Source: a virus (Duplodnaviria; Heunggongvirae; Uroviricota; Caudoviricetes). From it: a stretch of DNA of 32,066 nucleotides. Positions 2,490 through 15,022 of this stretch are shown one piece after another (within the stretch, counting starts at the first letter, position 1; the number at the start of each line of letters is the position of its first letter). A model generated the notes under the pieces. It saw only the letters and a program-made list of their open reading frames with translations, was not told where the DNA came from and ran no database searches. A program made the translations under genes and the position numbers. The DNA lies in the IMG/VR virus record IMGVR_UViG_2565956714_000003; one strand, written 5' to 3'.

Positions 2490-2650
2490 ACCGCCTCCCG
2501 TTTATTATTTATCTTCTCAGCCAGCCGCTGTGCTTTCAGGGGATTTCTGATAACAGAAAGGCCGGGAAATACCCAGCCTCGCTTTGTAACGGAGTAGACG
2601 AAAGTGATCGCGCCTACCCGGATATTATCGTGAGGATGCGTCATCGCCAT
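2462..2650 (-). CDS. Lambda orf60a-like protein
   Basis: 62-aa [41 protein letters not shown]..., recognised as lambda orf60a; sits immediately downstream of exo, overlapping the exo stop. Confidence 0.75.
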
Positions 2651-3321
2651 TGCTCCCCAAATACAAAACCAATTTCAGCCAGTGCCTCGTCCATTTTTTC
2701 GATGAACTCCGGCACCATCTCGTCAAAACTCGCCATGTACTTTTCATTCCGCTCAATCACGACATAATGCAGGCCTTCACGCTTCATGCGCGGGTCATAG
2801 TTGGCAAAGTACCAGGCATCTTTTCGCGTCACCCACATGCTGTACTGCACCTGGGCCATGTAAGCCGATTTTATTGCCTCGAAACCACCGAGCCGGAATT
2901 TCATGAAATCCCGGGAGGTAAACGGGCATTTCAGTTCAAGGCCGTTGCCGTCACTGCATAAACCATCGGGAGAGCAGGCGGTGCGCATACTTTCGTCGCG
3001 ATAGATGATCGGGGATTCAGTAATATTCACGCCGGAAGTGAATTCAAACAGGGTTCTGGCGTCGTTCTCGTACTGTTTTCCCCAGGCCAGCGCCTTAGCA
3101 TTAACTTCCGGAGCCACACCGGTGCAAACCTCAGCCAGCAGGGTGTGGAAGTAGGACATTTTCATGTCAGGCCACTTCTTTCCTGAGCGGGGCTTTGCTA
3201 TCACGTTGTGAACTTCTGAAGCGGTGATGACGCCGAGCCGTAATTTGTGCCATGCATCATCCCCCTGTTCGACAGCTCTCACGTCGATCCCGGTACGCTG
3301 CAGGATAATGTCCGGTATCAT
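2641..3321 (-). CDS. exo: Lambda exonuclease (Red alpha)
   Basis: 226-aa ORF near-identical to lambda Exo ([54 protein letters not shown]...). Confidence 0.97.
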
Positions 3322-4103
3322 GCTGCCACCTTCTGCTCAGTGGCTTTCTGTTTCAGGAATCCAAGAGCTTTCACTGCTTCGGCCTGTGTCAGTTCTGACG
3401 ATGCGCGAATGTCGCGGCGAAATATCTGGGAACAGAGCGGCAATAAGTCGTCATCCCATGTTTTATCCAGGGCGATCAGCAGAGTGTTAATCTCCTGCAT
3501 GGTTTCATCGTTAACCGGAGTGATGTCGCGTTCTGGCTGACGTTCTGCAGTGTATGCAGTATTTTCGACAATGCGCTCGGCTTCATCCTTGTCATAGATA
3601 CCAGCAAATCCGAAGGCCAGACGGGCACACTGAATCATGGCTTTATGCCGTAACATCCGTTTGGGATGCGACTGCCACGGCCCCGTGATTTCTCTGCCTT
3701 CGCGGGTTTTGAATGGTTCGCGGCGGCATTCATCCATCCATTCGGTAACGCAGATCGGATGATTACGGTCCTTGCGGTAAATCCGGCATGTACAGGATTC
3801 ATTGTCCTGCTCAAAGTCCATGCCATCAAACTGCTGGTTTTCATTGATGATGCGGGACCAGCCATCAACGCCCACCACCGGAACAATGCCGTTCTGCTTA
3901 TCAGGGAAGGCGTAAATTTCTTTCGTCCACGGATTAAGGCCGTACTGGTTGGCGACGATCAGCAATGCGATGAACTGCGCATCGCTGGTATCACCTTTAA
4001 ATGCCGTCTGGCGAAGAGTGGTGATCAGTTCCTGTGGGTCGACAGAATCCATGCCGACACGTTCAGCCAGCTTCCCTGCCAGCGTTGCGAGTGCTGTACT
4101 CAT
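3318..4103 (-). CDS. bet: Lambda Bet (Red beta) single-strand annealing protein
   Basis: 261-aa ORF near-identical to lambda Bet ([38 protein letters not shown]...); ATGA overlap with exo. Confidence 0.97.
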
Positions 4104-4108
4104 CCGTT

Positions 4109-4405
4109 TTATACCTCTGAATCAATATCAACCTGGTGGTGAGCAATGGTTTCAACCATGTACCGGATGTGTTCTGCCATGCGCTCCTGAAACTCAACAT
4201 CGTCATCAAACGCACGGGTAATGGCTTTTTTGCTGGCCCCGTGGCGTTGCAAATGATCGATGCATAGCGATTCAAACAGGTGCTGGGGCAGGCCTTTTTC
4301 AATGTCGTCTGCCAGTTCTGCCTCTTTCTCTTCACGGGCGATCTGCTGGTAGTAACGCGCCCAGCTCTGAGCCTCAAGACGATCCTGAATGTAATAAGCG
4401 TTCAT
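4109..4405 (-). CDS. gam: Lambda Gam (RecBCD inhibitor), 98-aa form
   Basis: [37 protein letters not shown]... matches lambda Gam; RBS CAGGAG; an in-frame stop lies upstream, so only the short form is encoded. Confidence 0.95.
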
Positions 4406-4480
4406 GGCTGAACTCCTGAAAATGGCTGTGAAAATATCGCCCGCGAAATGCCAGGCTGATTAGGAAAACAGGAAAGGGGA

Positions 4481-4687
4481 TTAGCGATTCAGGCCGTTAC
4501 CGCGTCCGTCGAGAAAAACTTCCACGAGCAAATCACGGGTATAAGTGCGCTCGATGCCGCGATGCAGATAAAGCCGTCCGCGTAAATTAGCTGATGCAGT
4601 CCAGGTACCATCTTTGTGTTTGACCAGCATTCCTGGCATGACCGCGCCGCGATTAACGGTCTGCGTTCCGTAATGTTGATGAACCAT
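4481..4687 (-). CDS. Hypothetical early protein (68 aa) at the kil/cIII position of the leftward operon
   Basis: [32 protein letters not shown]... with strong RBS AGGAG 7 nt before ATG at 4687; the ORF track extends it to 4771 (96 aa) with a weaker start. Confidence 0.5.
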
Positions 4688-4959
4688 AAAAACTCCTGCC
4701 CGTAAGCTGGGCTGCTGAACATATAGAGACTTCTGCGCGTATTCAGGCGGTGGATGGCCGCCGGTTGTCATAACTAAGCCGCCTCGTTGAAGCGACTAAG
4801 GTATGAAATGTTGAGTTGATTTCAGCTGGTCACACCGACGTTCACGCGTCCGTTTCACCCCTCGCACTCCCCGAAGCCTGCTGAAATTCAAACTGCGGAT
4901 CTAAGCGGTCATCGCAACGGTGAATCAGGTGGTTGCCGTATCGTTGTGTTGTTGCGATG

Positions 4960-5045
4960 AACTTATTTAAAACTATAGTTGTTTTACCGTCAACAACAAA
5001 AGTTGTTTTATTGGTTGTTTTAGATATAACTGGTTGTATTTAGGA
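4960..5045 (-). promoter_or_regulatory. Candidate OL/pL operator-promoter region for the leftward early operon
   Basis: Cluster of the operator heptamer shared with OR: AACAAC-AAAA-GTTGTT palindrome 4992..5007, TGGTTGT at 5012..5018 and 5031..5037, plus palindrome AACTATAGTT 4971..4980. Confidence 0.5.
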
Positions 5046-5131
5046 TGGATTTATTTTGTGACTTGAATCGCATAGCGATAACTGAAGCGAGGTTATGGTG
5101 GTTTTTTTAACGGTGTGTGTGATGAGGGGAG

Positions 5132-5161
5132 GGCAAAAGAAAACCCGGCACGGTGACCGGG
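5132..5161 (-). terminator. Rho-independent terminator-like hairpin downstream of cI
   Basis: Stem CCCGG/CCGGG (5144..5148 / 5157..5161) with 8-nt loop, followed on the minus strand by UUUUCUUUUG (plus strand CAAAAGAAAA 5134..5143). Confidence 0.5.
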
Positions 5162-5282
5162 ATTCTTACGCCGTTAGGTAAAGATATTATTGCGGTGGCT
5201 TAATATTACTACCTAGAGCAAAGATAGGAATTAGTTCTTTACTGAATGAGCACAATGCCCAGTTGATAATTTTTAATTGGTA

Positions 5283-5972
5283 CTACCCATGCTTCCTATA
5301 TGTCTGCGGCATGCTCCCAATAACCTTACCGAAGATGAACACCCGGTTCATCTCGTCTTTCTCGATCGGGTCCCACGGTGAGTAGCTTTTGTTATCAGAG
5401 ATGACCAGCAGCTTATCCTTCATCATTTGCAGGCGCTTTACATGGGCTGTGTCGTCGTACAGAAACGCATAGATACCATCACCGTCGAAAGATTTAACTG
5501 TGATATCAACGAACAGCAGATCACCTGGTTCGATCGTTCCTGACATGCTGTCACCACGCACGTTAATGATGCGGATATTTTCCGCCTTCCTACCATCGAA
5601 CATATGACGAGCATCGTCAAACGAGTACTCAACCGAGCGTAGAACTTCTACAAACTCACGGTTGATGACTCCCGGCCCAGCACTGACTTCTATATCAAGA
5701 ACGTCAATCTTGAAGTATTTGGAATGGCTGACAGTTGATTGTATTGGTTGCACTGTACTGTCTGACATATTTCCAACGCCAGAAGATAACCATTCTGCGC
5801 GCACACCCAAAGCGTTCGCGATCTCCACGATTTTAGTTGTTTGATTAGCTTTCCCTGTTTCGATTTTCTGAATAGCAGCTTGGCTAACCCCGACCAAATC
5901 CCCAAGCGCCTTTTGTGTAAGGCCTCGCGCTAATCTGGCTTCTTTAAGTCTTTCTGAGAGTGTTGTTTTCAT
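5283..5972 (-). CDS. cI: CI-type prophage repressor (HTH_XRE N-domain, LexA/S24 peptidase-like C-domain)
   Basis: ORF with HTH LTQKALGDLVGVSQAAIQKIETG, an Ala-Gly (SAGPG) candidate autocleavage site, and GDSM...VKRL Ser-Lys dyad motifs; divergent from cro; start assigned to Met at 5972, while the track ORF reads through the operators to 6038. Confidence 0.85.
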   Translation of the reverse strand: MKTTLSERLKEARLARGLTQKALGDLVGVSQAAIQKIETGKANQTTKIVEIANALGVRAEWLSSGVGNMSDSTVQPIQSTVSHSKYFKIDVLDIEVSAGPGVINREFVEVLRSVEYSFDDARHMFDGRKAENIRIINVRGDSMSGTIEPGDLLFVDITVKSFDGDGIYAFLYDDTAHVKRLQMMKDKLLVISDNKSYSPWDPIEKDEMNRVFIFGKVIGSMPQTYRKHG

Positions 5973-6076
5973 AGTCCAAATGTACAACCAAGGTTTTATT
6001 TCATCAAACGAAAATGGTTGTTGACTAAAAACAACCATAGTTTTAATCTTGATTCAAATTAACCACGGAGGTTGTT
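5973..6076. promoter_or_regulatory. OR operator / divergent promoter region between cI and cro
   Basis: Heptamer ACAACCA at 5984..5990 and 6031..6037, TGGTTGT at 6016..6022; perfect inverted repeat ATGGTTGTT-N7-AACAACCAT (6014..6038) overlapping a TTGACT -35-like hexamer (6021..6026) with TTTAAT -10-like hexamer at 6042..6047. Confidence 0.7.
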
Positions 6077-6307
6077 ATGAACCCAGCTATCAAAACAGCG
6101 ATCAATATCGTTGGTTCACAAAAGAAACTGGGCGCTGCTTGCGAAGTTTCACAGCAGGCCGTCTATAAGTGGCTTCACAACAAAGCAAAGGTATCCCCTG
6201 AACATGTCGGCAGCATTGTTACGGCTACTGGTGGAGTAGTGAAGGCATACCAGATTCGCCCGGATCTTCCGAAGTTGTTTCCACACACCGAAAAGAACGC
6301 AGCTTAA
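6077..6307 (+). CDS. cro: Cro-like repressor (YdaS-family small HTH protein)
   Basis: 76-aa ORF divergent from cI; RBS GGAGG; HTH-like segment KKLGAACEVSQQAVYKWL. Confidence 0.8.
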   Translation: MNPAIKTAINIVGSQKKLGAACEVSQQAVYKWLHNKAKVSPEHVGSIVTATGGVVKAYQIRPDLPKLFPHTEKNAA

Positions 6308-6319
6308 ATTTCCATTTCA

Positions 6320-6332
6320 CGCTCTTTAACAA
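6320..6332 (+). promoter_or_regulatory. boxA-like antitermination motif downstream of cro
   Basis: CGCTCTTTAACAA matches the boxA consensus (lambda CGCTCTTA; rrn-type TGCTCTTTAACAA) at the position nutR occupies in lambda; no obvious boxB hairpin follows. Confidence 0.45.
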
Positions 6333-6376
6333 TAAGCAATCAACTTAACAGTCAATTCAAACTAAAGGAGTCAATT

Positions 6377-6916
6377 ATGCAACCACTTACATACCAACAG
6401 ACTAGCGGATTTAGCCCGACTGCGGTGATAAATCGTTCTCAAACAAAACAGGTGCCAGGCCACGAAAAAATCCGTGATGCCGTCCGCGCTTGGTCGGCTG
6501 AAGATAATCAGGATGTCGTTGCCACACTCATTGTGAATGAGTATCGGGAGCAGGGCGGCGGCACCATCGATTTCCCTGATGATGTCAGCCGTGCACGCCA
6601 GAAGCTGTTCCGCTTCCTCGATAACAAATTCGATTCTGAAAAATACCGAAATAACGTGCGTGAACTGACCCCGGCAATTCTGGCGGTACTACCGCTGGAA
6701 TATCGCGGTTACCTGGTTGAGCAGGATAGCTTCATGGCTAGGTTGGCTGAAATGGAAAAGGAACTCAGTGAGGCAAAACAGGCTGTCATTCTCAACGCAC
6801 CACGCCACCAGAAACTGAAGGAAATTAGTGAAGGTATTGTGTCGATGTTTCGTGTGGACCCAGATCTGGCTGGTCCATTGATGGCGATGGTTACTACCAT
6901 GCTGGGGGCGATATGA
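6377..6916 (+). CDS. CII-position regulatory protein, YdaT-like (179 aa)
   Basis: ORF with RBS AAGGAG between cro and O; motifs EYREQGGG and LTPAILAVLPLEYR resemble Rac YdaT as I remember it. Confidence 0.55.
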   Translation: MQPLTYQQTSGFSPTAVINRSQTKQVPGHEKIRDAVRAWSAEDNQDVVATLIVNEYREQGGGTIDFPDDVSRARQKLFRFLDNKFDSEKYRNNVRELTPAILAVLPLEYRGYLVEQDSFMARLAEMEKELSEAKQAVILNAPRHQKLKEISEGIVSMFRVDPDLAGPLMAMVTTMLGAI

Positions 6917-8929: not shown

Positions 8930-8996
8930 TGAAACAGGTGAGTTGAGTTCAAACTGTAGTACAATTCTCTCCAGTTTGAACAGGAAAGAATATGCT

Positions 8997-9329
8997 ATGA
9001 ACCCTTATATTTATCTTGGTGGTGCAATACTTGCAGAGGTCATTGGTACAACCTTAATGAAGTTTTCAGAAGGTTTTACACGGTTATGGCCATCTGTTGG
9101 TACAATTATTTGTTATTGTGCATCATTCTGGTTATTAGCTCAGACGCTGGCTTATATTCCTACAGGGATTGCTTATGCTATCTGGTCAGGAGTCGGTATT
9201 GTCCTGATTAGCTTACTGTCATGGGGACTTTTCGTCCAACGGCTGGACCTGCCAGCCATTATAGGCATGATGTTGATTTGTGCCGGTGTGTTGGTTATTA
9301 ATCTATTGTCACGAAGCACACCACATTAA
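8997..9329 (+). CDS. emrE: Small multidrug resistance (SMR) efflux transporter EmrE
   Basis: 110-aa ORF MNPYIYLGGAILAEVIGTTLMKFSEGFTRLWPSVGTIICYCASFWLLAQTLAYIPTGIAYAIWSGVGIVL... recognised as EmrE (four TM helices, conserved membrane Glu in the first helix). Confidence 0.95.
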   Translation: MNPYIYLGGAILAEVIGTTLMKFSEGFTRLWPSVGTIICYCASFWLLAQTLAYIPTGIAYAIWSGVGIVLISLLSWGLFVQRLDLPAIIGMMLICAGVLVINLLSRSTPH

Positions 9330-9585: not shown

Positions 9586-11112
9586 ATGAAAAAAGCCATA
9601 GCATATATGCGATTTTCATCACCAGGTCAGATGTCTGGCGACTCATTAAACCGACAGAGAAGACTTATTGCTGAATGGTTAAAGGTAAATAGTGATTATT
9701 ATCTTGATACCATAACATATGAAGATTTAGGATTAAGTGCATTCAAAGGAAAGCATGCACAATCAGGAGCTTTTTCGGAATTTTTAGATGCTATAGAGCA
9801 TGGTTATATATTGCCAGGAACTACATTGTTAGTTGAAAGTCTGGACAGACTTTCAAGAGAAAAAGTCGGTGAAGCGATTGAACGTCTGAAATTGATTTTG
9901 AATCACGGTATTGATGTTATAACTCTTTGCGACAATACAGTCTATAATATTGACTCTTTGAATGAGCCATATTCATTAATAAAAGCCATACTTATAGCAC
10001 AAAGGGCAAATGAAGAAAGCGAGATAAAGTCAAGTCGGGTTAAATTATCATGGAAGAAAAAACGGCAGGATGCACTGGAATCAGGTACGATTATGACGGC
10101 GTCTTGTCCGAGATGGCTCTCCTTAGATGACAAAAGAACGGCTTTTGTTCCAGACCCCGACAGGGTGAAAACTATTGAGCTAATTTTTAAACTCAGGATG
10201 GAAAGGCGCTCATTGAATGCAATAGCCAAGTATTTAAATGATCATGCTGTAAAGAATTTCTCAGGAAAAGAAAGTGCATGGGGACCTTCTGTAATTGAAA
10301 AATTATTAGCGAATAAAGCTCTGATAGGTATATGCGTACCTTCATATCGTGCAAGAGGGAAAGGAATAAGTGAAATCGCGGGCTATTATCCCAGAGTCAT
10401 ATCAGATGATTTGTTTTACGCTGTACAGGAAATTCGGTTGGCACCTTTTGGTATTAGCAATAGTAGCAAGAATCCTATGCTAATAAATCTACTTCGAACA
10501 GTTATGAAGTGTGAGGCTTGTGGTAATACCATGATTGTTCATGCGGTATCTGGAAGTTTGCATGGCTATTATGTTTGTCCGATGAGAAGATTACATCGAT
10601 GTGACAGGCCATCAATAAAAAGAGATTTGGTTGATTATAATATCATTAATGAATTGCTTTTTAATTGTAGCAAAATTCAACCAGTTGAAAACAAGAAAGA
10701 TGCTAATGAAACTTTAGAGTTAAAAATTATTGAGCTTCAGATGAAAATTAATAATTTAATCGTTGCATTGTCTGTCGCGCCTGAAGTTACCGCTATAGCA
10801 GAGAAAATAAGACTATTAGATAAGGAATTACGAAGGGCTTCGGTATCATTGAAAACTTTGAAGAGTAAAGGTGTAAATTCATTCAGTGATTTTTATGCTA
10901 TTGACTTAACCAGTAAAAATGGACGAGAGTTATGCCGTACACTTGCCTATAAAACATTCGAAAAAATCATAATTAATACGGATAATAAAACCTGTGATAT
11001 CTATTTTATGAATGGCATTGTTTTTAAACACTATCCTTTAATGAAAGTAATATCCGCCCAGCAGGCGATAAGTGCTCTCAAATATATGGTTGATGGTGAG
11101 ATTTATTTCTAA
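9586..11112 (+). CDS. ybcK: Large serine recombinase (resolvase/invertase-type catalytic domain plus recombinase and Cys-rich zinc-ribbon region)
   Basis: 508-aa ORF; N-terminal AIAYMRFSSPGQ matches the serine-recombinase active-site motif Y-x-R-x-S-x3-Q; Cys cluster CEACGN...CPMRRLHRCDRP; gene body AT-rich. Confidence 0.85.
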   Translation: MKKAIAYMRFSSPGQMSGDSLNRQRRLIAEWLKVNSDYYLDTITYEDLGLSAFKGKHAQSGAFSEFLDAIEHGYILPGTTLLVESLDRLSREKVGEAIERLKLILNHGIDVITLCDNTVYNIDSLNEPYSLIKAILIAQRANEESEIKSSRVKLSWKKKRQDALESGTIMTASCPRWLSLDDKRTAFVPDPDRVKTIELIFKLRMERRSLNAIAKYLNDHAVKNFSGKESAWGPSVIEKLLANKALIGICVPSYRARGKGISEIAGYYPRVISDDLFYAVQEIRLAPFGISNSSKNPMLINLLRTVMKCEACGNTMIVHAVSGSLHGYYVCPMRRLHRCDRPSIKRDLVDYNIINELLFNCSKIQPVENKKDANETLELKIIELQMKINNLIVALSVAPEVTAIAEKIRLLDKELRRASVSLKTLKSKGVNSFSDFYAIDLTSKNGRELCRTLAYKTFEKIIINTDNKTCDIYFMNGIVFKHYPLMKVISAQQAISALKYMVDGEIYF

Positions 11113-14553: not shown

Positions 14554-14638
14554 AGTCAGAGATAACAATCAACTAATACTGTTTCGTTGATTTTTGCTTG
14601 TAATTGGCGTTCTGGTCTGATTTTTGTGGAGTAAGTTG

Positions 14639-15022
14639 ATGCGTGATATTCAGATGGTTCTTGAGCGTTGGGGAGCGTGGGCGGCTAATAATCATGAAGA
14701 TGTGACCTGGTCGTCCATTGCCGCCGGTTTTAAGGGATTAATTACTTCAAAAGTAAAATCTCGCCCGCAATGTTGTGACGATGACGCGATGATTATTTGC
14801 GGGTGCATGGCCCGTCTGAAAAAGAACAACAGCGATTTGCACGATTTATTAGTAGATTATTATGTAGTCGGTATGACATTCATGTCACTGGCAGGTAAGC
14901 ATTGCTGCTCTGATGGTTATATCGGGAAAAGGTTACAGAAGGCTGAGGGCATAATTGAAGGGATGTTAATGGCATTAGATATCCGGTTAGAGATGGATAT
15001 CGTTGTTAATAACTCTAATTAA
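14639..15022 (+). CDS. quuD: Late-gene antiterminator Q (QuuD type)
   Basis: 127-aa [27 protein letters not shown]... with Cys-rich region ([16 protein letters not shown]); RBS GGAG; lies immediately before the late region. Confidence 0.85.

Follow-up and report, generated by a model that had tools for sequence, protein, structure and literature searches.

The window, by which we mean the whole stretch of 32,066 nucleotides of DNA analyzed here, carries a lambdoid E. coli prophage whose early-left arm lies on the minus strand. The gene order in this left arm comprises an integrase (1-1164), exo (2641-3321), bet (3318-4103) and gam (4109-4405, minus strand; Pfam Gam, E 5.8e-64), the last of these being the next gene downstream of the open reading frame (ORF) that is the subject of this work. 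In its long form, which includes an upstream ATG, this ORF occupies 4481-4771 on the minus strand, between gam and the repressor gene, and a gene-free stretch of 510 bp separates it from the latter. The repressor (5283-5972, minus strand) is of the CI type, with an HTH domain (HTH_3, E 6.5e-13) and an S24 peptidase domain (Peptidase_S24, E 1.5e-18). Its longest ORF would start at 6038 and PGAP places the start at 5972; the short start is more likely because the longer form would add 22 codons that overlap with the OR palindrome (6014-6038). The plus strand then encodes a YdaS-type Cro (6077-6307) and a YdaT-type CII-like protein (6377-6916), followed by O and P, and a Q-type antiterminator is located at 14624-15022. 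Genes for N, cIII, ral and sieB are absent from the window prophage. Between ren and the nin-region genes lie an SMR/QacE-like gene for a small multidrug transporter (8943-9329, plus strand; PHROG 1395, E 9e-57) and a large serine recombinase of 508 aa (9586-11112, plus strand; PHROG 95, E 4e-120), which look like cargo or an inserted element within the prophage.

At 4965-5043, the sequence repeats the OR/pR region (6003-6046) in inverted orientation (19 nt at 95% and 23 nt at 74% complementarity) and holds the arrangement TTGACG-17-TTAAAT, with the -35 element at 4993-4988 and the -10 element at 4970-4965. For these two reasons, it is read here as the putative pL promoter of the minus strand with its OL operators; a simple consensus promoter scan gave no call at this place. 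Upstream of it, at 5144-5161 on the minus strand, an intrinsic terminator follows the repressor gene, consisting of the terminator-like sequence CCCGGTCACCGTGCCGGG and then a T run. No other minus-strand ORF of at least 40 aa occurs between the studied ORF and the putative pL. The preliminary description had presented the ORF as the first gene immediately downstream of pL; it is indeed the first cistron in the leftward operon, without however following the promoter immediately, as an untranslated leader of about 270 nt lies between them. The interval separating the repressor gene from pL is a hot spot for cargo. Phage PhiR47_2 carries the GevT/GevA toxin-antitoxin pair there (L002 3769-5197) and other relatives have unrelated genes in this interval, while the pL leader and the downstream gene are conserved up to approximately position 5241 of the window.

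Direct reading of the ORF confirmed the features first described for it: an ATG at 4771 that would give 96 aa, an internal ATG at 4687 that gives 68 aa, a common TAA stop at 4483-4481, and an AGGAG Shine-Dalgarno sequence (4693-4697, minus strand) separated by a 5-nt TTTTT spacer from ATG 4687. The description of the gene as unassigned and without recognizable similarity has to be revised, since searches of the databases revealed clear homology to the KilR protein of the Rac prophage, an outcome that the preliminary description had itself named as refuting it. The 68-aa protein matched PHROG 294, "Kil protein for bacterial septation inhibition" (E 1.6e-38 / 1.7e-37), the same family that is matched by KilR of E. 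coli K-12 (E 7.5e-35). BLASTP aligned it with K-12 KilR, the single characterized member, at 36% identity over 61 aa (E 3e-12), in an alignment that pairs Met29 of the long ORF with KilR Met1. Profile comparison and structure prediction, both of which the preliminary description had named as ways of examining the ORF, were both applied: hhalign aligned the profile of the target subfamily with the KilR-containing profile over the full length at 99.9% probability (E 9.7e-34), and the AlphaFold2 model is discussed below. The NCBIfam subfamily model NF008465 (PRK11354, "FtsZ inhibitor protein") was also matched (E 3.6e-17), and because its score of 62.1 bits falls below the curated cut-off of 92, the protein is classified, by its sequence, as a member of a sister subfamily of K-12 KilR and not as an equivalog. 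A Pfam-A search of the ORF gave no match; homologues carry the newer accession PF27398.

The gene is far from rare. Many E. coli chromosomes contain DNA with 100% identity to 4400-5300; there, PGAP/RefSeq annotates exactly the 68-aa coding sequence as WP_000233577.1, "phage encoded cell division inhibitor protein", and at least 80% of this 901-bp stretch is present in 1,986 of 5,426 complete E. coli genomes. Several isolated phages also carry it under the annotation of Kil or FtsZ inhibitor, including 4A7 and Perceval (100%), HK225 and mEp237 (84-85%), and HK639 (38%). The family as a whole is small and mainly enterobacterial (clustering at 50% leaves 80 representatives in a set of 1.84 billion proteins), and in the window, in HK639 and at many other loci the gene is directly upstream of gam-type genes. 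On this homology, the gene is a KilR-family cell-division inhibitor, hereafter kil, that was already known and annotated in RefSeq. The literature searched yielded no experiment on the target subfamily. Altogether, the explanation that we consider very probable is that the locus contains the kil gene of a lambdoid E. coli prophage, made from ATG 4687, KilR-family in kind and, by homology, directed at FtsZ.

The resemblance to Rac KilR (YdaD, from the cryptic prophage of E. coli K-12) extends beyond sequence. The two proteins have similar sizes (68 aa for the target and 73 aa for KilR) and start at the same position, and both genes are located in an early-left region near recombination genes, downstream of an untranslated leader. 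AlphaFold2, supplied with an alignment of 22 sequences, predicted six beta strands for the target (pLDDT 83.1, pTM 0.67), with lower confidence at residues 1-10 and 61-68. This predicted all-beta fold with loose ends matches the AlphaFold3 model of KilR, described as beta-rich with unstructured N- and C-termini (PMC12482147), both being predictions. Structural searches gave few further clues: Foldseek against the PDB returned no match at E of 0.001 or lower, its top hits being weak, eIF5A-like small beta domains with E of about 1, and a sequence profile search of the PDB with the protein gave no match. The best structural match in BFVD was an uncharacterized 73-aa protein of a Pantoea phage (TM 0.74), which is probably a homologue. 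None of these searches (PDB, BFVD and profile) provided a structural analogue or solved structure hinting at a mode of target binding. The differences from KilR include neighborhood and tail. While the target lies directly between pL and the gam-bet-exo genes of a lambda-like module, the Rac gene is accompanied by ydaE/racC/recET, the kilS sRNA and sieB, and a comparison with the Rac kilS sRNA region gave no similarity. The conserved core is kept up to V-F-L (family motif V-F/Y-L), after which the target ends in DGRGNGLNR and KilR in GRDGLPVKAESW. The Gly-rich target tail of 9 residues is therefore 3 residues shorter than the 12 of KilR, lacks its Pro and its terminal Glu-Ser-Trp, and is the least conserved part of the protein.

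Experimental work on KilR suggests how the target might act. KilR disrupts Z-rings at low levels and MreB localization at high levels, and its toxicity and growth defect are eased by overproduction of FtsZ but not of MreBCD (PMC12482147). The C-terminal 12 residues are essential, and removal of the last 3 leaves toxicity and filamentation in place while abolishing the effect on MreB and cell rounding (PMC12482147). By analogy, the short C-terminal tail of the target probably carries the activity; since this tail is 3 residues shorter than that of KilR, and since KilR without its last 3 residues loses only the MreB/rounding effect, the target may inhibit division alone, with no effect on MreB. 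In the lysogen, the S24-type CI repressor would hold pL off. Upon induction of the prophage, putatively under SOS control, pL would be derepressed and transcription would proceed through the leader of about 270 nt, so that Kil would be the first protein made from the kil-gam-bet-exo operon. Kil would then bind or perturb FtsZ, as expected from its homology with Rac KilR, blocking Z-ring assembly and causing transient filamentation. An FtsZ-directed division block is expected on induction because of the KilR homology and the retained core, and any effect on MreB is uncertain. The inhibition of host division suggested in the preliminary description is, from the same homology, probably right.

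A homologue of KilR could nevertheless have shifted in function, aiming at MreB alone or at another divisome protein, or serving mainly in some other capacity, for instance as a signal detected by a host defense system. The identity of only 36%, the score below the curated cut-off and the divergent C-terminal tail lend some substance to this idea, as do the two targets of KilR itself (PMC12482147) and the case, reported in 2026, of T7 Gp0.4, another phage FtsZ-binding protein, which is sensed through FtsZ by the defense protein CapRel (PMC13423816). However, conservation with KilR spans the entire core, the gene is under strong purifying selection, its counterparts in KilR-type and HK639-type phages have the same place in the operon, and its sequence gives no sign of another activity, which makes a shift of this kind unlikely. 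There is next to no likelihood that the protein belongs with, or works like, the lambda Kil/cIII group, inhibiting FtsZ in a ZipA-dependent manner or controlling the FtsH protease. The comparison with lambda kil/cIII in the preliminary description was sound as to the slot, which in the pL operon is the one just before gam; it holds no further, as the likeness to lambda Kil is positional only. Both lambda Kil (47 aa) and KilR act on FtsZ (PMC12482147), and filamentation on induction would be the expected phenotype in either case. Yet no BLASTP alignment to lambda Kil was obtained even at E 100, and lambda Kil belongs to PHROGs 3924/2461/2055 and not to 294. Furthermore, KilR-type toxicity is ZipA-independent, persisting in the ftsA* delta-zipA background that resists lambda Kil (PMC12482147), and lambda Kil is reported as a helical peptide with a predicted helix-turn-helix (PMC11762379), whereas the target is predicted to be all-beta.

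The remaining alternative concerns the product itself, and holds that the real protein is the 96-aa form from ATG 4771, with the 28-codon in-frame extension (4688-4771, minus strand) contributing a functional domain at the N-terminus of the Kil core. In the window and in 35 near-identical E. coli variants, the frame from ATG 4771 runs uninterrupted into that of kil. The long form is reported by some gene callers, and 10 nt before ATG 4771 there is a GAGG, in the loop and 3' arm of a conserved RNA hairpin (hairpin 1, described below). An N-terminal extension might also be tolerated, as KilR with an N-terminal mCherry fusion still produces its morphological phenotypes (PMC12482147). Comparison between lineages nonetheless makes the long product distinctly improbable. 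An ATG in alignment with 4687 is kept, together with a purine-rich RBS (GGAG, GAGG or GGGG at the same distance from the ATG in orthologous loci), in 25 loci from 25 species and about 15 enterobacterial genera; these loci were found through the protein, and in one of them (L026) the tblastn match begins at residue 5 with the ATG 9 nt upstream. In-frame stops occur 6-15 nt before the conserved ATG in four loci from four species (L008, L010, L024 and L027), and the N-terminal extensions proposed by gene callers are unrelated in sequence between lineages. In six more-diverged variants with kil directly downstream, the upstream ORF is out of frame or ends early (27-39 aa, or 93 aa when frameshifted) and kil is intact. 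KilR and most homologues measure 66-73 aa and start at the aligned Met, most homologues having 66-68 aa. Within the 68-codon frame, the median dN/dS was 0.118 over 219 pairs, indicating strong purifying selection, with the caveat that dS is largely saturated; by its sequence, the ORF is conserved far more than chance would allow. On these grounds of start and RBS conservation, upstream stops, unrelated extensions, selection and the broken upstream frame in diverged variants, comparative sequence evidence identifies ATG 4687 as the true start of kil (4481-4687, minus strand; 68 aa plus stop), in agreement with the PHROG, hhalign and PGAP assignments. The upstream start given in the first description was not upheld: the extension is not conserved and is judged non-coding, and ATG 4771 sits inside the conserved leader RNA, making the 96-aa start an artefact of an embedded ATG. 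Deposited coding sequences and database proteins for this gene are often wrong, being in another frame or extended too far, as in phage Turner (L003 2090-2371), annotated as 93 aa in another frame, and PhiR47_2 (L002 3082-3468), annotated as 128 aa. A 77-aa ORF in an alternative frame (4489-4722) explains the Turner annotation and some frameshifted database proteins (P0038, P0044 and P0049). Faulty entries also include frameshift chimeras, in which parts of the leader ORF and of the alternative frame are fused to the Kil C-terminus.

The leader that precedes kil contains a conserved RNA module (4744-4811, minus strand; 90.9 bits with covariance model R2) formed by CAUACCU, hairpin 1, the linker AGUUAUGAC and hairpin 2. 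Hairpin 1 (4777-4797, minus strand) pairs AGUCGC with GCGGCU around the loop UUCAACGAG, and hairpin 2 (4746-4762, minus strand) pairs GGCGG with CCGCC around CCAUCCA; the conserved loops of the two are UUCAnnGAG and CYAUCCA. In the window, the linker between them reads UAGUUAUGACAACC, and the module is followed by GCGCAGAAGUC, a third hairpin and the RBS. Hairpin 3 (4698-4712, minus strand; GCCC/AGCUUAC/GGGC), recognized by eye, abuts the RBS and is replaced at the same place in other lineages, again by eye, by GCGC...GCGC or GCC...GGC. In a comparison of 23 distinct variants, each of the 6 pairs in hairpin 1 shows substitutions on both sides, the proportion of paired cells is 93.5% compared with 29-55% when the 3' partner is slid, and none of 500 shuffles reached the observed covariation. 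The structure is assigned to the leftward transcript because of U-G pairs. Hairpin 2 is invariant in the set selected by pattern, which is uninformative either way; divergent copies, detected with the model and not with the pattern, retain it in the form GCGG-CUAUCCA-CCGC. The folding energy of the whole leader was no different from that of shuffles (z = -0.33).

The module is widespread. A DNA pattern search located it in at least 120 IMG/VR viral contigs, and BLAST of the leader against kil-bearing genomes showed the segment to be 82-97% identical in other genera, where it stands before different first genes. Model R2 detected a single copy in the window, none in the pR operon, where a second would be expected for nut or put elements, and further copies in 9 genomes from other genera as well as in HK225, directly upstream of Kil, and in HK639. 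Rfam searches of 4300-6400 and of seven related loci returned nothing relevant, neither the module nor the other leader hairpins being represented. A leader peptide, MTTGGHPPP, with a polyproline stall was considered as the main constraint, as 16- and 21-codon versions recur, and was rejected. The set selected by pattern is biased for this region; in divergent copies, hairpin 1, AGUUAU and hairpin 2 are preserved and this peptide is not, and one of these copies has no AUG. Because the hairpins are kept while the peptide or AUG is lost, the constraint on the module is, from these sequences, on the RNA and not on a leader peptide. As regards function, the module may counter Rho or cause pausing, affect RNA processing or stability, or bind a protein. 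Hairpin 2 does not look like an intrinsic terminator in the window, because no U-run follows it. In the record of HK639, two annotated "terminator" features (L152 3183-3278) overlap the module match (L152 3203-3269), and the second of them (3250-3278) covers hairpin 2.

Upstream of the module, the first 140 nt or so of the putative pL transcript (4819-4960, minus strand) contain two hairpins, and this region is about 80% conserved in a Scandinavium locus (L030:256-350). The 5'-proximal hairpin (4909-4960, minus strand) has perfect 10-nt arms and is C-rich, G-poor and partly conserved in the Scandinavium leader, while the large hairpin (4819-4887, minus strand) has 11-nt arms and lies in a region conserved there. 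The put RNA of HK022 and HK639 is a processive antiterminator found in the pL leader of N-less lambdoid phages. The window prophage likewise lacks N, and many sister loci with the same module have a genuine HK022-type putL upstream of it, that of HK639 being annotated in its record; at this place the window has the two hairpins, which the Scandinavium prophage shares in part. The 69-nt hairpin (4887-4819) was considered as a put element of the HK022 type, since by eye part of it looks like put stem II. This was rejected with a covariance model (R1) built from 13 put sequences, which scored the positive control, HK639 putL, at 97.7 bits and found no match in the window leader, in the identical E. 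coli loci or in HK225; elsewhere in the window, its scattered matches reached at most 9.4 bits with E of at least 0.5. The conserved module, present in a single copy per phage, is a different element from put.

The absence of an N-type arginine-rich motif reported in the preliminary description was borne out for both the 68- and the 96-aa products. The only Arg-rich ORF in the leader, a TTG-start frame of 31 aa (RLRGVRGVKRTRERR; 4796-4891, minus strand), overlaps the large leader hairpin. It was rejected as a gene or mini-N, as a stop codon interrupts the homologous Scandinavium leader, and by this comparison it is probably neither. A boxA-like sequence, CGCTCTTTAACAA, close to the rrn/nut boxA consensus, occurs in this N-less prophage only after cro (6320-6332, plus strand), with no boxB-like hairpin after it. 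A 13-nt motif, AATCAACTYAACA, occurs both in the pR transcript (6338-6350) and, at 4821-4809, in the pL leader.

The kil gene itself adds little, since it is a further instance of a division inhibitor that is common in prophages. The naturally short tail of its subfamily could serve as a natural variant with which to separate the effect on FtsZ from that on MreB. What merits a further look at this locus is the leader RNA element and not the ORF: we tentatively propose, as a possibility falling somewhat short of an even chance, that it is a previously undescribed, widely conserved structured RNA situated before the first early-left gene of many N-less lambdoid phages, and that it may control kil and the recombination genes.
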